From the NCBI GenBank assembly GCA_963702025.1, contig OY969699.1, positions 256,001 to 320,000 of the forward strand: DNA of 64,000 nt, read 5' to 3'. Source of the DNA: an uncultured bacterium (GTDB taxonomy: Bacteria > Babelota > Babeliae > Babelales > Vermiphilaceae). A program made the translations under genes and the position numbers. Positions within the stretch are counted from its first letter, which is position 1. Each line of letters starts with the position of its first letter. The notes below the pieces were generated by a model. The model did no database searches and was not told the origin of the DNA. It saw only the letters and a program-made list of their open reading frames with translations. This document shows, in pieces, positions 12,068 through 60,090 of the stretch.

Positions 12068-12772
12068 ATGAAGATCCGTTACATTTTCATTATCGCAGCG
12101 ATCACCTGGGCTTACTGCTTCTTTGCCATGGAACTGCCTGGCAAAAAGCAAAAAAGAGAACCAACGCAGGAAGTTTCTATTACTAATTATCTTCAAAAGC
12201 AGCCACAACTTATTAACCAAAGACGAAAAGGGAATAGGCTGGATCTTTCAAAACTGAATCTTACTAGCCTGGAAGGATTACATTTCTTACCCGATTATGC
12301 CGCCATTAAGCATCTTAATCTTACCGATAATGAGCTGACAACCATAAAAAACAATGCTCTTTATGGCATGAACAGTTTAGAAACATTGGATTTACTTAAC
12401 AATAAAATAAAAACGCTCGAGCCATTAGCATTTAATGGGTTAAAAAATCTTAAAAAAATCAACTTGAACGGTAACAACATTAAAAGAATTGATATTGCAT
12501 TCGCACGGCTGCCTGAACTTGAGGAATTGTATCTTGAACTTAATAAGATAGAGTATATAGCGCCCTATGCATTTCGCGATTTAAAAAACTTAAAGAAATT
12601 ATGGCTGGGGAATAATAACTTGCAAACAATCGATGCAAGAGCGCTGAAGGGTGCGCAAGAGCAATCCTTGCCGGCACTTGAAATACTTGATTTAGAAAAC
12701 AATCCACTCAGCCAAGAGGAACAGGATAAAATTGAGAATGTGGTTTCGCCAACTATCACTCTTATATTTTAA
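12068..12772 (+). CDS. Secreted leucine-rich-repeat protein (tandem paralog)
   Basis: Same LRR pattern; MELPGKKQKR. Confidence 0.95.
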   Translation: MKIRYIFIIAAITWAYCFFAMELPGKKQKREPTQEVSITNYLQKQPQLINQRRKGNRLDLSKLNLTSLEGLHFLPDYAAIKHLNLTDNELTTIKNNALYGMNSLETLDLLNNKIKTLEPLAFNGLKNLKKINLNGNNIKRIDIAFARLPELEELYLELNKIEYIAPYAFRDLKNLKKLWLGNNNLQTIDARALKGAQEQSLPALEILDLENNPLSQEEQDKIENVVSPTITLIF

Positions 12773-13602
12773 AGACACCGCAATGCAATCACCGTCATTT
12801 GCCTGCCCGCATTTTCACCCTGACGGCGATGAGAAAAAAAGCGATCATCACACATGGTGCAAAAATTATAACTAGTATCAATTGCAGAGGCTGGAATACC
12901 TAACTTTTGCAATTGCAGGCTATTAAGAAGCGGAACGTCTAAATACCATTTATTATCGCGCGAGAAAAGAGCTTTATTTACAAAATCTATATTTAGGGAT
13001 TTATTTGCATGGTTCGATCCAGCCTTCGCCAACAGGCTTCGGCGGACAGGTACGCTCACCACGAACGGACTGCCGGCACCGCCATCTTGTAAGCCAATGG
13101 TTGATCTAGCCACAGCGCAAAAATCCTGTTTCACTTCATAGCAACACGGCAGAGCGCTCGGGCCAAAAAAAAGCTGTAAATCTTGGGTATGAGAATTATA
13201 CATTTCCTGCATTTTCATAATCGCCGCAGGTGCCACACCTGCAATGCTGCCTCGCCAGCCTGCATGCACGATTGCTGCTACGTGATGTTGCATATCATAG
13301 ATTGCAATCGGCAAACAGTCGGCAGCCATCACACCAATGCCAAGATTTTTTTTGGTGGTAATTAAAAAATCGCCATCAATATCAAATGCAGGAATTTGAT
13401 CGTTAACAAGAAATCCCTGCGTGCTGTGGGTTTGATTAAGAAAGCAGATATTTTTAAGAGCAAGATTATGCACTATCGGCTTAAACCGTTCATGTAAAAG
13501 AAGCGGCGCAGATGCCGGAACACAATGCGCCGCTTTGTAAATTTGATCAGTTTGGTCACCAAAATAAATGGTGAACCGTTGATTGTTATAAATTATTCCC
13601 AT
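12769..13602 (-). CDS. pgeF: PgeF/YfiH-family protein carrying an in-frame repeat insertion
   Basis: QTHS, ADCLP, HAGWRG, GPS...CCYEV, CT...FFSHRR. Confidence 0.93.
   Translation of the reverse strand: MGIIYNNQRFTIYFGDQTDQIYKAAHCVPASAPLLLHERFKPIVHNLALKNICFLNQTHSTQGFLVNDQIPAFDIDGDFLITTKKNLGIGVMAADCLPIAIYDMQHHVAAIVHAGWRGSIAGVAPAAIMKMQEMYNSHTQDLQLFFGPSALPCCYEVKQDFCAVARSTIGLQDGGAGSPFVVSVPVRRSLLAKAGSNHANKSLNIDFVNKALFSRDNKWYLDVPLLNSLQLQKLGIPASAIDTSYNFCTMCDDRFFSHRRQGENAGRQMTVIALRCL
13008..13068 (-). repeat. Nested palindromic REP-like element inside pgeF
   Basis: Minus strand ccgttcgtggtgagcgta-cctgtccgccgaagcctgttggcgaaggctgg-atcgaaccatg; encodes PFVVSVPVRRSLLAKAGSNH. Confidence 0.85.
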
Positions 13603-51369: not shown

Positions 51370-51445
51370 GCGGGAATAGCTCAATTGGTAGAGCGTTGCC
51401 TTGCCAAGGCAAAGGTCGCGGGTTCGAGTCCCGTTTCCCGCTCCA
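51370..51445 (+). tRNA. tRNA-Gly (GCC)
   Basis: gcgggaa acceptor stem, anticodon arm tgcc-ttGCCaa-ggca, GGTTCGAGTCCC T-arm, encoded CCA; 76 nt. Confidence 0.98.
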
Positions 51446-51612: not shown

Positions 51613-51697
51613 CCGTTCGTGCTGCCCCTTCGGCGAGCTCAGGAGTAAACGCCGAGCCTGCCCGCCGAAGCTTTAGCGAAGGCTGGGTCGAAGCATC
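51613..51697 (+). repeat. Triple-nested REP-like element
   Basis: ccgttcgtgctg[ccccttcggcgagctcaggagtaaacgcc]gag[cctgcccgccgaagctttagcgaaggctgg]gtcgaagcatc; empty form at 52720-52747. Confidence 0.85.
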
Positions 51698-51876: not shown

Positions 51877-52707
51877 ATGAAATCAATAATGGAAGAAGCA
51901 TCAACAGTAAGCAAAGCAATAGAGCAAGCCTGGCAACGTGCAGGCCAACCTCAGGAATTTTCAATTAAAGTTCTTGAGCTCCCTAAAACATCATTTTTTG
52001 GTCTTAAAACATCAAAATCAGCAAAAATTGCCTTCTTTTTTAATGAGGCAACAGTAAAAATTCGAGAACCTCAAGCAGCGACCCAAAAGCAGATTCGCCC
52101 TCTGGCTCCCCGCCCTCAGCAAGGCGGCCGCCCTGAGCAATCAGAGCAAAGAACTGGTCAACGCCGTCCTCAGCATGCGCCTCGTGACCAACAGCGCCCT
52201 GAACGCCGAGAACAGACTGAGCGCACCGACATTCAACGACGAGTAACACAACCAAGCCGCCCGGAGCAATCCGAAAAGCGGCACGAAGAGCGGCGGCATC
52301 GTTCGGATGAAAGAGGCGGATACAGAGATGGTTCACCAGCCCCGGCGGGAGATGAAAGACCATATCAGCGCCAAGAGTATCGCTCATCAGAACCGCGTGA
52401 AATGTGGACCCCAGAAATGATCGATGCGGCACGTGACTGGGTAAAAGAAACATTGGTGATGATGGGACATCATGACATTAACGTCAGTTCAACTGTGTCA
52501 CATAATTATCTAAAGCTTAATTTGAGCCAACCTGTTTTAGATGATCCACGCGCTGAAGAAACGCAACTTAAAAGTTGGGGCAGTTTAGCAATGGAAGCAG
52601 TACGCGATAAAGCACAAAAACCTTTGCGTAGCTTGCGAGTTATTTTAGAAAGCAGCCCTTCGAGACCCGACTACGCCAAGACTTCGTCGGGCAGGCGCAC
52701 AGAATAA
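51877..52707 (+). CDS. jag: Jag/EloR N-terminal-domain protein with Arg/Gln/Pro-rich linker
   Basis: EASTVSKAIEQA...IKVLE...SFFGL Jag_N pattern; position before mnmE. Confidence 0.75.
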   Translation: MKSIMEEASTVSKAIEQAWQRAGQPQEFSIKVLELPKTSFFGLKTSKSAKIAFFFNEATVKIREPQAATQKQIRPLAPRPQQGGRPEQSEQRTGQRRPQHAPRDQQRPERREQTERTDIQRRVTQPSRPEQSEKRHEERRHRSDERGGYRDGSPAPAGDERPYQRQEYRSSEPREMWTPEMIDAARDWVKETLVMMGHHDINVSSTVSHNYLKLNLSQPVLDDPRAEETQLKSWGSLAMEAVRDKAQKPLRSLRVILESSPSRPDYAKTSSGRRTE

Positions 52708-52747
52708 TAGTATAGAAAGCCGTTCGTGCTGAGCCTGTCGAAGCATC
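52656..52747. repeat. REP-like pair at the jag 3' end and jag-mnmE gap
   Basis: cccttcgaga[cccgactacgccaagacttcgtcgggcagg]...; ccgttcgtgctgagcctgtcgaagcatc. Confidence 0.8.
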
Positions 52748-52767: not shown

Positions 52768-54297
52768 ATGTTCTGCCCCGATGAACAAACAATCATTGCA
52801 CAATGTACGCCCCGCGCAAGCGGGGCAATTGCCTTACTGCGTATCAGTGGAAATGGAGCAATTCCGATCGCTGATGCGATAAGTTCTTTGGCTTCTGGCA
52901 AGAAACTTGCTCAATCGCCATCCCATACCATTCATTATGGTTCGGTCAAGAAAATGACTCCAATAACCAATCACGATCCTTCGATACGCGCCTATGGCGC
53001 TACTCAGGACGAACGGAGGAATGAATCCGTTCGTGGTGAGTGTCTCGCGAAGCGAGATGTATCGAACCATTCCCAAGAAGCTGCAACTATTGATAATGTC
53101 CTTTTTCTCCTCATGCGAGCACCCAAAACATTCACCGGGCAAGATACGGTGGAAATTACCTGCCACAACAACCAATTTATTATCGAAGAGATTATTGCGC
53201 TTGCCATCGGCGCCGGCGCGCGCCTGGCGCAAGAAGGTGAGTTCACCAAACGCGCGGTCCTGAGTGGCAAAATTGATCTGATACAAGCGGAAGCAATTAA
53301 TGAATTGATTCACGCTCAAACACAATTGGCACTCAAGCAATCGCTTGCCCAACTTGATGGGAGCTTTTCACAGTGGTTGCAAATGCTGGAAAAAGATTTA
53401 CTCAAAGCGCTCGCATTATCTGAAGCAAGTTTTGAATTTCTTGATGAAGAGATGGAATTTGCGCCGCAAATCAGCACTTTGATAGAAACCACACAAAACA
53501 ATATTGGTATCATTAAAAAAACATTTAATCAGCAACAAACGATTCGCCAAGGAATCCGTGTTGCCATAATCGGCTCGGTGAATGCCGGCAAATCATCCTT
53601 ATTTAATGCGTTGCTCAATCAAAATAGAGCGATTGTAAATGCACAGGCAGGCACCACAAGAGATTCTATTGAGGCAGGTCTTTATAAAAATGGCAATTTT
53701 TGGACCTTGGTGGACACCGCCGGATTGCGCCAAACGGATGATACCATTGAACAAGAGGGCATTAAACGTTCTTTTGAAGAAGCTCACAAAGCAGACATTA
53801 TCATTCTTGCATATGATGGTTCGCGAGAAATAAGTGCGCAAGAAAAGACGGTTTATGATGGCATTGTGGAAAAATATCCGAATAAAATTATTACGGTATT
53901 TACCAAGGTGGATCAGGTACAATCCAAGGAACCGTTCGTGGTGAGTGCGAATGAAATTCGCGTATCGAACCATGCAGTTGAAAATCCCATCTTTCTCTCA
54001 AGCAAAACCAAAACAAACATAGACCTTCTTGAAAAACAGATCGAACAAAAAATAACCGGCTTATTTGCTCAAATCGAATCACCGTTTTTACTTAATCAGC
54101 GTCATTACAATATCTTACTGACACTTGAAAATAAACTGCACGAAATTCAACAGATGCTCGCATGCAAAAAAGTTGCCTATGAATTACTTTCCGTGCATAT
54201 TAATGATGCCATTGCTAATCTTGCAGAACTTTCGGGTAAATCTATCAGCGAGGCAGGAATGGACATGGTGTTTAGAGAATTCTGTATTGGAAAATGA
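52768..54297 (+). CDS. mnmE: tRNA modification GTPase MnmE with two in-frame repeat insertions
   Basis: GEFTKRA, DLIQAEA, GSVNAGKSS, GTTRD, DTAG and FCIGK. Confidence 0.98.
   Translation: MFCPDEQTIIAQCTPRASGAIALLRISGNGAIPIADAISSLASGKKLAQSPSHTIHYGSVKKMTPITNHDPSIRAYGATQDERRNESVRGECLAKRDVSNHSQEAATIDNVLFLLMRAPKTFTGQDTVEITCHNNQFIIEEIIALAIGAGARLAQEGEFTKRAVLSGKIDLIQAEAINELIHAQTQLALKQSLAQLDGSFSQWLQMLEKDLLKALALSEASFEFLDEEMEFAPQISTLIETTQNNIGIIKKTFNQQQTIRQGIRVAIIGSVNAGKSSLFNALLNQNRAIVNAQAGTTRDSIEAGLYKNGNFWTLVDTAGLRQTDDTIEQEGIKRSFEEAHKADIIILAYDGSREISAQEKTVYDGIVEKYPNKIITVFTKVDQVQSKEPFVVSANEIRVSNHAVENPIFLSSKTKTNIDLLEKQIEQKITGLFAQIESPFLLNQRHYNILLTLENKLHEIQQMLACKKVAYELLSVHINDAIANLAELSGKSISEAGMDMVFREFCIGK
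52975..53070. repeat. Inverted REP doublet (REPIN-like) inside mnmE
   Basis: ccttcgatac-gcgcctatggcgc-tactcaggacgaacgg ... ccgttcgtggtgagtg-tctcgcgaagcgaga-tgtatcgaaccat. Confidence 0.88.
53932..53974 (+). repeat. Single REP-like element inside mnmE
   Basis: ccgttcgtggtgagt-gcgaatgaaattcgc-gtatcgaaccatg; encodes PFVVSANEIRVSNH. Confidence 0.88.
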
Positions 54298-54372
54298 GAC
54301 TACTTAAATATAGACGCAGAGGCGTAAAGCCATTAATACAATAAGATAATCTGCTTCATTACTATATCTCAT

Positions 54373-55341
54373 TTATGCATGAGCCGCTTGTGCTTGTGGC
54401 GCATATTTATTATAAGAAGCCACAATCTTATCAACTTTCTTTTGACCGGCGACGATTGCCAATTGCTGCGCAGCCGTTTGGCATGCAACAGGAATTCCCG
54501 ATGCTGTTTTTGCAGCAGAAGAAGCATTTTTTATTAAAGCATGCTTAAATTCCATCTCTTTTTGTACTTTTTCTGTCTCTGCTTTAAATTTAGCGGCTTT
54601 CAATTTTTCTTTTAGATCATTTGCCTTTTGAGCCTCGGTCGGGAAAAAGTATCGATAAATCTCACGGCCTTTATAATACACTATAACACCCACAACCACT
54701 CCTCCCACAACAATGCAGGTTGCAACCGGATGTGCTACCGCAACAGCGGCAACGGTTGATCCGGCAGATTTTATTGCAGCGCCGGTGGTTTTTATGGCAG
54801 CCCCTACGGTATTTAATGCGCCGACACCAACATTTGCGCCTGCATTTGGCGCAGCCTTAGCAAGAGCGATACATGCTTGCTTAATCTCTCCCGATGATTT
54901 TTCAATAACCGGAGCAAGAACTTTGGCTGCTTCAATGCCACCATTTGCCAGAGCCGGCTCAGCAGTTTTTAATGCTTCAGCAAATTTTTCAAGGGCCGGG
55001 ACAGTTTTTGCGGTGATAAAAATACCTGTTTTAGATAGTGTATTCACTGTTTGATTAACAACCGGAATCGCGGTTTTAACAGTTTGTAATCCAACCTCAG
55101 AGCCGGCTGCAGGAAGCGTTGCTAGCAATTCTTTAAGATGTGGCGATAACTCTTTAACGGCTTCAATACCTAATTCTTTAGCAGCTTCATTCATTTTTTG
55201 CGAAGCATCTCGGAGTGCAGGTGCCATAATTTTTGCAGCATTTAAGCCTATATCACATCCCATTCCATTGTCCGCTAAAATGCAATGGAACAATTGGAAA
55301 AGAAAAAGTTGATAAAATACCATCTTTTTTATGTTGTTCAT
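54373..55341 (-). CDS. Secreted Ala-rich amphipathic-repeat protein with a long hydrophobic segment
   Basis: Signal peptide; GIEAVKELSP and GIEAAKVLAP repeats; VAAVAVAHPVATCIVVGGVVVGVIVYY. Confidence 0.7.
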   Translation of the reverse strand: MNNIKKMVFYQLFLFQLFHCILADNGMGCDIGLNAAKIMAPALRDASQKMNEAAKELGIEAVKELSPHLKELLATLPAAGSEVGLQTVKTAIPVVNQTVNTLSKTGIFITAKTVPALEKFAEALKTAEPALANGGIEAAKVLAPVIEKSSGEIKQACIALAKAAPNAGANVGVGALNTVGAAIKTTGAAIKSAGSTVAAVAVAHPVATCIVVGGVVVGVIVYYKGREIYRYFFPTEAQKANDLKEKLKAAKFKAETEKVQKEMEFKHALIKNASSAAKTASGIPVACQTAAQQLAIVAGQKKVDKIVASYNKYAPQAQAAHA

Positions 55342-55363: not shown

Positions 55364-55864
55364 CTACTGATTAAAAGCGATCAATTTTTGATTAATTTCA
55401 CGACGTTCTTGCTCAAGAACTTCATATCTTTGGATTAAAGTCTTTATAAGTCGATACTCATTAACAATTATTAGAAGAAAAAACTTTATTGCGTCAAAAT
55501 TTTCTTCTATTTGGTCATTTTCAGATTTTCGGAAAAGTTCTTTAATCAAAAAATTATTAACATTTTTTTCATTATTTAAAGTTCTGATAAATGCGACAAG
55601 ATTTTCGTCTACCGCGCGACCGAACTCGCCTCTTTCTTGCTCGTTAAGGTTCTTTTTTTCTAGTTCTGCTCTCAAAATATTGATAGCTTCTTTCCAAGTC
55701 GAACGCGTATACAAATACCTTTCAGCAATTGTCTTGCCCAATTCGGAAAGTTCCATTTCTTTTTTAAATTTAAGCTCTGCTAATTGTGCTTGTGCGTCTG
55801 TTTCATTACCCAAAAGAGTAAGCGGCATTAAAAGAACGGCTAGTAATATATTTTTGTAAGTCAT
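55364..55864 (-). CDS. Secreted helical protein (cassette 1, gene 3)
   Basis: MTYKNILLAVLLMPLTLLGN; paralog of 58631-59140. Confidence 0.8.
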   Translation of the reverse strand: MTYKNILLAVLLMPLTLLGNETDAQAQLAELKFKKEMELSELGKTIAERYLYTRSTWKEAINILRAELEKKNLNEQERGEFGRAVDENLVAFIRTLNNEKNVNNFLIKELFRKSENDQIEENFDAIKFFLLIIVNEYRLIKTLIQRYEVLEQERREINQKLIAFNQ

Positions 55865-55946
55865 AAAAATTCCTTAAAATAATTGAAAAATTTATTCACA
55901 ATGGGGCATAATCCCGAAAATAGTTTTTAATCTTGTCTCAATAAAT

Positions 55947-55969
55947 CCCCCCATGGAAGAACCATGGGG
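55947..55969 (-). terminator. Hairpin after the cassette 1 membrane gene (equivalent at about 59229-59251)
   Basis: ccccatgg-aagaa-ccatgggg, conserved in both cassettes. Confidence 0.6.
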
Positions 55970-56010
55970 AGGCCAATGTTAATCTTTGGAATAATGTATC
56001 TCACGCATCG

Positions 56011-56355
56011 CTAATCCGATTCAGCCCGTTTATACTTATAATGATAGACACACCAAATCAACGTTATGCTAAATGCAATTCGGATAATCGGCGCCATATA
56101 AGGGCTAATCTGATACAATGGTTGCCACAGTCCATAGCGTGGAATTTGATAATACCATGCCAGCCATGGGCATCCTATGAACCATACAATAATCATATAG
56201 GTCAAGAAGAAGGGATTTCTGAACGGAGAATTTTCATCGATAATTCTATACCATCGCTCTCGTTCTCCTCCAATTATCATGCTCAAAAGCACTATAACTG
56301 CACCATATAACGTATTTTCAAGTTGGATTAGGCAGGAGTACCAAAATGTAATCAT
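56011..56355 (-). CDS. Small three-TM membrane protein, putative immunity (cassette 1, gene 2)
   Basis: Three hydrophobic segments; starts 9 nt after gene 1; distant paralog of 59258-59593 (Y.IV.WF...W..WY.Q.PR.G.W). Confidence 0.65.
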   Translation of the reverse strand: MITFWYSCLIQLENTLYGAVIVLLSMIIGGERERWYRIIDENSPFRNPFFLTYMIIVWFIGCPWLAWYYQIPRYGLWQPLYQISPYMAPIIRIAFSITLIWCVYHYKYKRAESD

Positions 56356-56364
56356 ATGTTCTCT

Positions 56365-56856
56365 TTATGGAGTCGGCAAGAGAGTTCCAGCAACCTCCAC
56401 GGTCAATGCTGATGCTTCAATAGCCTCATGAACAAGATGCGCTTCTGCAAGAACTTCTGGATGAAAAATGGCCGCAACTGCATAGCCGCCATAACCCACT
56501 GCACGTACTGTCCATCCGGCAATTTTTCCTGTAATCCAACCGCCGCCATTGCCACGAACCTTTGCCACAAGAGCATATTTCCCTTCTTCAAATTTATTGA
56601 TGCGGATATACCCGTTACCAACAAATTCATTCAAGACTTTATGTTGCGAAACATCTCTGAGCAATGGATTAATATTATGCTTTTCAACAAAATGTTTTCC
56701 ATTCTCATCTTCGACGTAGAAATCTCTCTGATTTGAATACAGCTTAAGATCATTTGCCGATGATACAGCGCTCTGCTCTACCAATTCCATTGCATGAACT
56801 AATGATGAAATACTGAATAAAAATAATGATAAAGAAGTGATGTTACGTATCTTCAC
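56365..56856 (-). CDS. Secreted precursor: conserved pro-domain, GNGGG, variable hydrophobic peptide (cassette 1, gene 1)
   Basis: GTG start; first ~107 aa nearly identical to 59596-60090, then diverged. Confidence 0.8.
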   Translation of the reverse strand: MKIRNITSLSLFLFSISSLVHAMELVEQSAVSSANDLKLYSNQRDFYVEDENGKHFVEKHNINPLLRDVSQHKVLNEFVGNGYIRINKFEEGKYALVAKVRGNGGGWITGKIAGWTVRAVGYGGYAVAAIFHPEVLAEAHLVHEAIEASALTVEVAGTLLPTP

Positions 56857-56996: not shown

Positions 56997-58226
56997 CTGA
57001 AGTTCGGACATAAATAGAAGAGACTCCTGTTCTGGTGTATTTTTAAAAAAAACAAAGAAACACCAAAAACAGGAGAATCATGATTGCCAAAAAAGATATC
57101 ATAAAAATGATTAATTCGCTAAAAGTATTTAACATTCATGTTGCCGACTTCATCGGATCGATGATTTGGGGGTTCCAACAAGCAAAAAAGCTTAGAATTT
57201 CCAGCATTTCTGCTGCATCACCCGGCAAGTATGAATCTAACTATAAAAACATCACAAGATCTCTAAATAAATTAGAAGTTTCTCAGCTTTCAGAAGCTCT
57301 TTTGTCATTTCAGGACCAAGCGAGTGATATCCTATTGCTCGATTTTACTGAGATGACTCGAAAAAATGCTAAACGCACTGCTTATATTGGATATTTAAAA
57401 GATGGAGAAACACTTGGCTACAGCATATTGGCACTGAGTGTACCATTCAAAGGAAGATCTAAAATAATATTTGCTGATGTAATATCTTCTTCAATCATTG
57501 CTGAGAGCGCAACTGGAAAGTGGAAGCTTATTCAAGAAGCTTTACGCCCATTAATTCCTTTGCTTCAGAGTAAGATAATTGTCATTGATCGTGAACTTTG
57601 CAATGAGGAGATGATCAAGTTCTTTCATAAACATCAAATTCATTATTCAATACGCTTAAAAATAAGTGCTGGAAAAAACCAAATTATTATTACTGACAAA
57701 AAAGGCAGCAGGATTAACATTTCTATTACTCGCGGCTCAAAGAAAAATTGGAAAGGGGTTTATTATAAAGGGAAAATCAAAGTAAATATTGCTGCTGAAT
57801 GGCAAAGCAATATGCCTGAGCCAATGTATATAATTACAGATTGTCAGCCAAGTGAAGGTTTAAAATACTATAAAAAACGCATGAAAATAGAGGAAAGTTT
57901 CAAAGATATAAAAGATAAATTGGGCTTTACAAAAATCATGAATAAAACTTTAGGCAATCTCCTTAAAATGCTCCTCATTGGATTAATTGCCTACAATCTA
58001 TTGATTTTGATAGGCGAAATGCTGCGATTACAAGTGCTCACGAAGCGCGAAAGGCTTAAGTTCAGCGGTTTGCATTTATTGCTTAATATGATTTATTCAT
58101 ATTCTCGATCCAAACTTCGGAAAGCACTACGTCAAGTTGAATTCCATCTGCTTGAAAATAATTCAGATGATGTTGTTTGGTTAAGAGCCTTTAGGAATTG
58201 TTAAAATGAAATTGTCCGAACTTAAG
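56997..58226 (+). mobile_element. IS4-superfamily insertion sequence, about 1230 bp, apparently intact
   Basis: Terminal inverted repeats CTGAAGTTCGGACA and TGTCCGAACTTAAG; flanking direct repeat TTATTTT (56990-56996, 58227-58233). Confidence 0.88.
57080..58204 (+). CDS. DDE transposase (IS4 superfamily)
   Basis: LLLDFT, IVIDREL and YKKRMKIEESFKDIK (YREK motif). Confidence 0.93.
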   Translation: MIAKKDIIKMINSLKVFNIHVADFIGSMIWGFQQAKKLRISSISAASPGKYESNYKNITRSLNKLEVSQLSEALLSFQDQASDILLLDFTEMTRKNAKRTAYIGYLKDGETLGYSILALSVPFKGRSKIIFADVISSSIIAESATGKWKLIQEALRPLIPLLQSKIIVIDRELCNEEMIKFFHKHQIHYSIRLKISAGKNQIIITDKKGSRINISITRGSKKNWKGVYYKGKIKVNIAAEWQSNMPEPMYIITDCQPSEGLKYYKKRMKIEESFKDIKDKLGFTKIMNKTLGNLLKMLLIGLIAYNLLILIGEMLRLQVLTKRERLKFSGLHLLLNMIYSYSRSKLRKALRQVEFHLLENNSDDVVWLRAFRNC

Positions 58227-58630: not shown

Positions 58631-59140
58631 TTATGCATGTGAAGAGCCTCCGTTGTTTTGTTTTTTTAGATTTTCAATTTTTTGATCTATCGCTACCATT
58701 TCAGACAAAATTTGTTCATATTCTTCAAACATATTTTTCCAAATAATTCGCTCAATTATGATCCTCATTTGGGCTGATTTTATTTTGCCAAGCCCAAAAT
58801 CATTCTTTTTATTCTCAAAGAGTTCTTGCTTAAGAAAGTTATTAAAAGTTCTTTCGCCTTTAAAAATTTGATTTAATCGATTTAAAAATACATCTATCTC
58901 ATCATTAAATACTTTTTTTTCATCCTCATTCAAAGTTGAAAGTATATCTTGCCAGATGACAGATGCTTTATAAATCATATCTTCAATCAATTCTTCTTGC
59001 CGAGCGATTTTCTTGCCATACTCAGAAGCTTTTAGAATTTGCTCTTTTAAATCGTTTGTTAGTTGGGCTATTTGCTCGCTGTTACCCAAAAGAGAAAGTG
59101 GCATTAAAAGAATAGCCAATAATAGATTTTTGTAAGTCAT
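58631..59140 (-). CDS. Secreted helical protein (cassette 2, gene 3)
   Basis: MTYKNLLLAILLMPLSLLGN; SEYGKKIA and NNFLKQELF shared with 55364-55864. Confidence 0.8.
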   Translation of the reverse strand: MTYKNLLLAILLMPLSLLGNSEQIAQLTNDLKEQILKASEYGKKIARQEELIEDMIYKASVIWQDILSTLNEDEKKVFNDEIDVFLNRLNQIFKGERTFNNFLKQELFENKKNDFGLGKIKSAQMRIIIERIIWKNMFEEYEQILSEMVAIDQKIENLKKQNNGGSSHA

Positions 59141-59257
59141 CGAAAATATCCTTAAAATAATTGAAAGTTTTATTCAAAATGCGGCATAAGCTCTGAAAAT
59201 AGTTTTTTTTAGTCTTGTCTCAATTTATCCCCCATGTAAGAACCATGGGGGCATATA

Positions 59258-59593
59258 TTAATCTTTGGAATAATAATATCTATCCATTACAATCATAATG
59301 ACATTTGATATGATCACTACTCCTAATGCAGCCCATCCAAGTATTGGATTATGTCCAAAAAGTAAACTCCAGATGCCCCATCGAGGCTTTTGAATATACC
59401 AAGTGAGCCAGGTAAAAAAACCAAACCACATAACAATTAAGTATGCTAAGAAATACCCGTTACAAAAGTAATCAGGAAATAGTTCTGCGATTTTTGTTTT
59501 ATCACCAATTATGATATGACGAAAGCATAACAGCGTTATACCAATTAATAGGATCTCAACTTGTCCAAGAAAGGCTTGCAAAATGGTGACCAT
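59258..59593 (-). CDS. Small three-TM membrane protein, putative immunity (cassette 2, gene 2)
   Basis: Three hydrophobic segments; starts 2 nt after the gene 1 stop. Confidence 0.65.
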   Translation of the reverse strand: MVTILQAFLGQVEILLIGITLLCFRHIIIGDKTKIAELFPDYFCNGYFLAYLIVMWFGFFTWLTWYIQKPRWGIWSLLFGHNPILGWAALGVVIISNVIMIVMDRYYYSKD

Positions 59594-59595
59594 AA

Positions 59596-60090
59596 TTATG
59601 GTAATGGGGAAAGGGTTGCAGCAAGTCCCAGTGTATTTGCTGCCGCTTCAATGCCATGCATATATTCAGCCGAGTGCATTAGCATTTCGCCATGACTTGC
59701 CCATACTAATGCCGCAAAGGTACCCCATCCTGCAAGTCGCGTCCCCCACAATGCACACGCGCCAGCAACTGGGCCACCGCCATTGCCACGAACCTTTGCC
59801 ACAAGAGCATACTTGCCATCTTTAAATTTATTGATGCGGATATACCCGTTACCAATAAATTTTTCCAAGGCTTTATGTTGCGCGACAGCTTTGAGTAATG
59901 GATTAATATTATGCTTTTCGACAAAATGTTTTCCATTCTCATCTTCAACATAGAAATCTCTGTGGTTTGTATACAGTTTAAGATCATTTGCCGATGATAC
60001 AGCACTCCGATCTACCAGCTCCATTGCGTGGACTAATGATAAGGTACTGAATAAAAATAATGATAAAGAAGTGATGTTACGTATCTTCAC
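59596..60090 (-). CDS. Secreted precursor: conserved pro-domain, GNGGG, variable hydrophobic peptide (cassette 2, gene 1)
   Basis: Paralog of 56365-56856 with a different C-terminal ~57 aa. Confidence 0.8.
   Translation of the reverse strand: MKIRNITSLSLFLFSTLSLVHAMELVDRSAVSSANDLKLYTNHRDFYVEDENGKHFVEKHNINPLLKAVAQHKALEKFIGNGYIRINKFKDGKYALVAKVRGNGGGPVAGACALWGTRLAGWGTFAALVWASHGEMLMHSAEYMHGIEAAANTLGLAATLSPLP

Follow-up and report, generated by a model that had tools for sequence, protein, structure and literature searches.

Palindromic repeats lying in frame within protein-coding genes were described in Rickettsia, where the Rickettsia palindromic elements (RPEs) are carried as inserts by housekeeping genes and are predicted to be compatible with the fold of the host protein (PMC10969869 and PMC3733652, summarising Ogata et al. 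2000, 2002). Outside Rickettsia, repetitive palindromes of the GTAG and CGTC REP families also form in-frame intragenic inserts, including double insertions, and the CGTC REPs have been reported without a dedicated transposase (Di Nocera et al. 2013, PMC3733652). The nuclease SsnA binds its own dispersed hairpin in single-stranded form and cleaves the DNA a few bases to the 5' side; cutting, not insertion, has been demonstrated (Chenal et al. 2025, PMC11893778). The route by which RPE-like palindromes enter genes has been an open question since their description. Literature searches, for which subscription journals lay mostly outside coverage, found nothing on palindromic-element insertion in Dependentiae or on in-frame palindromic repeats in housekeeping genes of Patescibacteria, nor, in full text, on UPF0213 together with GIY-YIG. 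The available text of the TM6 comparative genomics paper (PMC4776705) contains no mention of 'palindrom'.

Here, a hairpin repeat is described that occurs three times within the mnmE gene of a member of the Babelales, at two loops that are variously filled in many relatives. The reading favoured, to which a probability of roughly 0.6 is given, is that this dispersed repeat is likely selfish, is likely spread by a small GIY-YIG single-strand nuclease, and is likely kept in mnmE only because the two loops tolerate additional residues. It is the recurrent two-loop hot spot in MnmE that is new, as in-frame palindromes as such are already known.

An mnmE gene with three in-frame repeat units

The window, i.e. 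the whole stretch of 64,000 nucleotides that was analysed, belongs to a 1.596-Mb single-contig genome (G000, contig C1), referred to below as the home genome. The product of its mnmE gene scored 319 bits against TIGR00450 (cut-off 253), which identifies it as MnmE/TrmE, and passed the Pfam cut-offs for MnmE_helical and TrmE_N; its score against NF003661 was 309, under the cut-off of 380. TrmE_N, helical, and G domains are all present, the predicted fold matches the solved structures 3GEI, 1XZQ, and 9HIP, and the named homologues come from Candidatus Babeliales/Dependentiae. Motifs G1, G2, G3, and G5 and the C-terminal FCIGK motif (following PMC12397908) are unbroken. The sequence-only reading of this DNA had taken all GTPase motifs to be intact, which holds with the qualification that G4 is the variant TKVD, not NKxD; the T at that position is common to insert-free relatives.

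Three repeat units were found within the gene, all in frame, without a stop, and at two predicted loops (Table 1), as had been proposed when two extra peptides in the 509-residue protein were traced to one repeat. The nearest orthologues without the inserts, here called empty, are 452–453 residues long and have short loops at both sites. The site-1 segment measures 17–18 residues in these orthologues versus 58 in the window protein, and its extra length includes 10 residues (KKMTPITNHD) to the left of the doublet that are not repeat-derived. Site 2 is about 16 residues longer than in the nearest empty orthologues. Both intergenic copies proposed earlier were also found, the one at 51613 being a composite, and the earlier inventory had overlooked a fourth coding copy, in pgeF, and a palindrome at the C-terminal end of jag. 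The jag genes of two related loci, L101 and L102, end earlier than that of the window.

Table 1. Repeat units and associated features of the window
Feature	Position	Strand	Remarks
mnmE	52768..54297	+	tRNA-modification GTPase MnmE, 509 aa; single copy, intact motifs
Site-1 insert	52951..53079	+	aa 62–104, about 41 aa net; beta-hairpin of N-terminal domain
Site-1 doublet, reverse repeat unit	52976..53016	-	Encodes DPSIRAYGATQDER
Site-1 doublet, forward repeat unit	53027..53070	+	Encodes SVRGECLAKRDVSNH; 10-nt spacer from reverse unit
Site-2 repeat unit	53932..53973	+	PFVVSANEIRVSNH; between G4 (TKVD) and G5 (SSK) of G domain
Short-loop repeat unit between jag and mnmE	52720..52747	+	Intergenic; absent from L101 and L102
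Composite intergenic unit	51613..51697	+	Second-family hairpin nested inside
pgeF repeat unit	13009..13068	-	In frame, inside ORF 12769–13602 (minus strand)
Second-family palindrome at jag 3' end	52640..52700	+	Stop displaced (52640–52707), about 15 residues added; Jag_N

In the AlphaFold model, site 1 is coil with pLDDT mostly below 50, between the strands at residues 54–61 and 107–116, and site 2, in the G4–G5 interval, is also coil. Alignment of an empty orthologue with the sequences of solved MnmE proteins leaves gaps at both positions, i.e. they fall in length-variable loops, and neither is among the MnmG-contacting MnmE segments named in the available text of PMC12397908. The insert peptides are predicted to be disordered passengers. 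At the nucleic acid level, the site-1 doublet folds at z = -5.7, and single units fold no better than shuffled sequences.

The core of the gene is under purifying selection as judged from its dN/dS of 0.082, calculated over 435 codons against the orthologue at L101. This value and the intact mnmG gene of the home genome are indirect, sequence-level signs of GTPase and tRNA modification activity, and the insert-bearing enzyme likely still works. The mnmE frames are broken in the assemblies of two related genomes (G005 and G007), and 2 of 130 mnmE loci examined are without an intact G-domain frame.

The hairpin repeat and its copies

The repeat unit is an oriented hairpin of the form CCGYTC-RYSS-TGAG-[inner hairpin]-TCGAA-SSR, 26–45 nt long, with an outer stem of 3–4 bp, a TGAG/TCGAA internal loop, and a variable inner hairpin. 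The outer stem co-varies, with pairs 1–3 being Watson-Crick in 109, 106, and 109 of 121 units, respectively, and GG/CC, GC/GC, and CC/GG swaps being seen. By a strict definition, 153 units are present in the home genome and none in any of three Markov controls. A wider definition yields 170 units, of which 79 are singles; there are also 19 back-to-back doublets and 28 facing pairs, a few of the latter being neighbours by chance. In the window, the repeat 14-mer has 6 matches against 0.17 expected, and an Rfam search returned only a tRNA at 51370–51442, with no match over the repeats. The pattern could be found in 34 of 61 related genomes, at 1 to 112 copies.

A candidate GIY-YIG mobiliser

Eight GIY-YIG matches were found in the home genome, one of which is UvrC. 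The gene for a 95-residue GIY-YIG protein (P0121) lies at C1:1201845 between inverted repeat units. Among loci encoding P0121 homologues, the inward-pointing motif flanks the gene on both sides in 18 of 26 from relatives and in 16 of 24 from the genome collection, and on at least one side in 23 and 22, respectively, against 3 of 111 control windows; the two locus sets may overlap. They include records from Allosphingosinicella, an alphaproteobacterium, and from Dehalococcoidia. The sequence-only reading had suggested an independent case of selfish DNA adding protein sequence in this lineage, and its restriction to the lineage was overstated, as repeat and nuclease are found together in those records.

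The catalytic-type residues Y7, Y17, R27, H31, and E64 are invariant in 19 P0121 homologues. Matches in the PDB were to UPF0213 proteins only, and searches of the ESM Atlas returned only generic GIY-YIG clusters. The protein is also 37% identical to a protein of a relative that we take to be Ssn-like, going by a pattern and by the different hairpins that accompany it. The cassette DNA had no match when compared with plasmids, and RAYT transposases, searched for with PF01797, gave 0 matches in the home genome, which is 95% complete. The number of repeats and the presence of the nuclease are not always matched: three repeat-rich genomes (G021, 21 copies; G013, 23; G014, 11) are without a close nuclease match, and three others (G041, G050, and G022) contain a nuclease match and no match to the repeat pattern. 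By analogy with SsnA, we infer that the nuclease mobilises the repeat.

Other small GIY-YIG genes are also accompanied by hairpins. At C1:490420–490632, a second UPF0213-like nuclease gene lies between paired hairpins of a variant type (CCGTTCGCCTCGATGGAG...), which also occurs in the MnmE inserts of P0017 and P0031. Another small GIY-YIG type, at C1:1567658, 1568458, and 1019370, adjoins tRNA genes or second-family hairpins (GCCGAAGCTTTAGCGAAGGC-like) and may be the partner of the second repeat family.

Miniature elements and the spread of the repeat

Part of the spread of the repeat is accounted for by transposase hitch-hiking. Eleven inverted-repeat-bounded miniature elements of one type (217–274 bp) enclose unit pairs, several of them with target duplications of 6–7 bp, and the ends of a second miniature-element type are also those of an intact DDE element (C1:1029308). 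Internally deleted copies of the nuclease cassette are present at about ten loci of the home genome, within outer inverted repeats. Because of the outer inverted repeats and target duplications around these cassette derivatives, a DDE transposase is held to have spread at least those copies, and for the same reason the deletion derivatives were weakened as proof of nuclease-driven mobility. A search with PF13612 for the transposase of the type-A outer ends gave one match, under the cut-off and unlinked, and no matching transposase. Back-to-back doublets were also considered as cassette circle junctions, an origin that was rejected because the 19 spacers (6–27 nt) are unlike the cassette flanks.

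These elements could mean that the repeats travel mainly as passengers of DDE-driven miniature elements, or by recombination or gene conversion, with the GIY-YIG nuclease doing no more than bind them, as it might when restricting incoming DNA; the demonstrated role of SsnA is the restriction of transforming DNA (PMC11893778). This explanation is considered unlikely. The inserts in mnmE, pgeF, holB, argS, grpE, uvrC, and the transketolase gene are without outer inverted repeats, and 79 of the 170 units are singles. Moreover, the same outer ends hold other hairpin pairs in G007, G032, G033, and G015, the one in G015 being of another hairpin type, and the occurrence of one shell around different hairpin pairs suggests independent entry of hairpin cassettes into the shell. 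Mobilisation by the nuclease, with hitch-hiking as a contribution, is preferred.

Miniature elements with the outer ends TAACGYGAAYTCGASCTAAGAA, duplications of 6–7 bp, and hairpin pairs inside are located in the home genome at C1:140116–140376, 207593–207840, 763969–764205, 972225–972442, and 1525123–1525373, among others, and also at loci L242–L248. Two copies of a 374-residue DDE transposase with the same printed sequence are found at 57080–58204 of the window and at C1:852317–853441, the latter copy having inserted immediately within the end of a miniature element, apparently with a 9-bp duplication. In the window, a duplicated block encoding three small proteins, probably secreted or membrane-bound, flanks the transposase at 55364–56856 and 58631–60090.

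Inserts in other genes and depletion of coding copies

ORFs of at least 100 residues contain 23 of the 153 strict units of the home genome. To identify in-frame inserts, the home genome was compared with the repeat-poor genome G009 (contig 1, 579 reciprocal best matches), and 9 of the 579 orthologue pairs had in-frame palindrome inserts on the home-genome side. The genes are mnmE, pgeF, uvrC, holB, argS, grpE, and those for transketolase, an S41 protease, in which the unit is degenerate, and a polyA-polymerase-family nucleotidyltransferase, in which the insert belongs to the second hairpin family. On the G009 side there were 97 insertions, all of them without the repeat motif. A stricter motif was used for the home-genome counts because of false positives with a looser one (2 of 97 and 3 of 92 on the G009 side, including the LeuS editing domain). 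The confirmed genes hold 11 strict units, about 7% of the copies, and ORFs of at least 150 residues cover 84% of the genome; by simple arithmetic, the density of units in coding sequence is 30–70-fold below that in intergenic sequence.

In the repeat-rich genome G006, about ten genes with inserts were identified using the looser motif and inspection by eye, mostly other genes than in the home genome: those for CysS, MetG, PheT, Zwf, UvrD, RecD2, MutL, a secretin, and a metallo-beta-lactamase-fold protein. A GrpE loop with an insert is common to both genomes. The LeuS of G006 (concatenated position 707830) is without about 170 residues found in the other two genomes, a part that we take to be the editing domain.

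A two-loop hot spot across MnmE homologues

To compare the insertion sites across species, 248 MnmE sequences were aligned, 215 of them with distinct cores of at least 400 residues; removal of six near-duplicates left 209. These homologues contain 59 internal inserts of at least 8 residues, 11 at site 1, 47 at site 2, and only 1 elsewhere, counts that are not population estimates because the set is biased, being made up of intact proteins ranked by their similarity to a query that itself carries inserts. A FastTree phylogeny was constructed without the two loops, and the number of state changes that it requires, in which gain and loss are indistinguishable, was compared with shuffled states. 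Site 1 needs 9 changes (shuffled mean 10.8) and site 2 needs 29 (shuffled mean 42.6, minimum 36), so that site 2 clusters by descent but has still changed many times.

The inserts vary in frame, orientation, family, length (up to 107 residues), and offset from G4. When compared with six-frame peptides of the repeat, 30 of 58 inserts beat all 40 shuffles and 28 do not; in a control set of short loops, 4 of 60 beat all shuffles, three of these resembling small remnants of the repeat on visual inspection. At one locus (L023, the mnmE of G029), site 1 is lengthened by a tandem DDHNNY repeat with no palindrome, showing that this loop tolerates other kinds of expansion.

With 58 of 59 inserts in two loops, it could be argued that the insertion machinery targets these loops, through their sequence or DNA structure, and that the pattern does not come from selection acting on a broad spectrum of insertions. 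A resident unit could also attract more events, as is suggested by composite inserts of up to 107 residues. Targeting of this kind is nevertheless very unlikely, as start points after G4 differ by several codons, frame, orientation, and family differ, and the empty-site DNA at site 1 is unconserved. Both loops are also length-variable among solved MnmE proteins. Given the 30–70-fold depletion of coding copies genome-wide, the MnmE hot spots most likely reflect selection.

Comparison with the closest orthologue

The closest MnmE orthologue (P0002, locus L101) is 86% identical to the window protein and represents four contigs from three sources. It has the same site-2 insert, identical at 41 of 45 nt; of the four differences, one is synonymous and three are non-synonymous, and two of the changes lie in the inner stem. 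Across the core of the gene, 93 of 292 synonymous sites differ, a synonymous distance of 0.42. By this measure the site-2 insert has diverged less than neutral drift predicts, for which weak constraint or conversion from other copies are possible causes. Site 1 of L101 holds a different doublet, with short loops and another spacer, so that this site was either hit twice or rewritten in place.

The retention of insert 2 in two species at such a distance, with drift below that of neutral sites, might also point to co-option of the insert peptides, or of the hairpins in their mRNA, for regulating the translation, activity, or partners of MnmE. We regard this as very unlikely, since most of the changes in insert 2 (three of four) are non-synonymous, two of the four lie in the inner stem, the sites of sister lineages are empty or hold unrelated inserts, and site 1 is predicted to be disordered. 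Lastly, that the inserts are assembly artefacts or that mnmE is a decaying pseudogene is scarcely tenable: although repeats are able to cause misassembly and no contig among those listed bridges the left junction of insert 1, contigs of run X1 (possibly the source sample) match 52988–53236 and 53902–54481 with 0 differences, contigs about 90% identical from two runs of other studies (X6 and X8) cross site 2 gap-free, P0002 is likewise drawn from other data sets, mnmE is single copy with a low dN/dS beside an intact mnmG, and purifying selection with an insert 2 common to relatives from other samples thus indicates neither artefact nor pseudogene.

Proposed mechanism

In most loci, inverted units bracket the 95-residue GIY-YIG gene. 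By analogy with SsnA, the nuclease would bind the hairpin in single-stranded DNA and cut just 5' of it, and repair would then put units at new sites or beside old ones, or swap them, giving rise to singles and back-to-back doublets. Selection would remove inserts that cause a frameshift, introduce a stop codon, or land in the folded core, as the depletion of coding copies suggests. Those that survive accumulate in the same loops, where they are replaced or remodelled in place, presumably because the loops are permissive.

A wider proposal is put forward tentatively, namely that UPF0213-type GIY-YIG proteins form a second class of hairpin-specific single-strand nucleases, which mobilise their own hairpins and cut beside resident copies. 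Permissive loops holding a unit would then act as self-renewing sources of new peptide sequence, and the MnmE loops of the Babeliales would record dozens of independent events. If true, this would provide a substrate for the uncharacterised UPF0213-like nuclease group and a natural map of the places in MnmE that accept insertions. This system offers a repeat family with its candidate enzyme, alleles with and without the inserts, and, within a single conserved protein, natural replicates by the dozen, so both the spreading mechanism and the selection filter can be tested directly, in vitro and in E. coli.

Comparison with known systems

The sequence-only reading had likened the inserts to RPEs, a comparison that stands for the way of working but not for membership, as size and coding fraction differ and the sequence apparently does too. 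Common to both are in-frame palindromes in unrelated housekeeping genes of a host-dependent bacterium. The present units are 26–45 nt long, whereas RPEs are about 150 bp; about 7% of the present copies lie in confirmed genes, compared with nearly half of the first-described RPEs; the present peptides use several frames, whereas RPEs encode one conserved peptide, as far as the available texts describe them; and here one pair of loops has been recolonised across a clade. The sequence comparison was made by profile scans, and a scan of 14 proteins against NCBIfam, a library that presumably contains the RPE models, listed none of them.

With the GTAG and CGTC REPs the repeat shares intragenic singles and dimers, additions of 20–30 residues from dimers, double insertions in a gene, and a host-gene set in which many members are DNA-repair or tRNA-related. 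It differs in having no terminal GTAG or CGTC tag and in its outer stem of 3–4 bp, compared with the 8–9-bp stem and 4–5-nt loop given for CGTC families in their text description. Unlike REP/RAYT systems, no RAYT was found in the home genome.

Among solved structures, the best matches of the nuclease are the UPF0213 proteins BH0048 (1ZG2, E = 4e-17) and EF2693 (1YWL, E = 8e-14), both of which differ in having been deposited as hypothetical proteins. We know of no flanking repeat for either of them. These UPF0213 matches, and an identity of only 37% to the Ssn-like protein, argue against the placement of P0121 in CDD cd10448.

The resemblance to Ssn extends to the arrangement of the locus. In both, a single-domain GIY-YIG gene of about 95 residues lies between inverted, oriented, dispersed hairpins of many copies, and the catalytic Tyr, Tyr, and Glu have the same spacing. 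However, 0 of the 153 units fit the published pattern of the Ssn-related motif (SRM), NTS copies are 2% intragenic, and in-frame peptides are not a subject of the available text of that study (PMC11893778). Given the closeness of the nuclease to UPF0213 and the absence of SRM matches, P0121 and its repeat are probably a sister system of Ssn.
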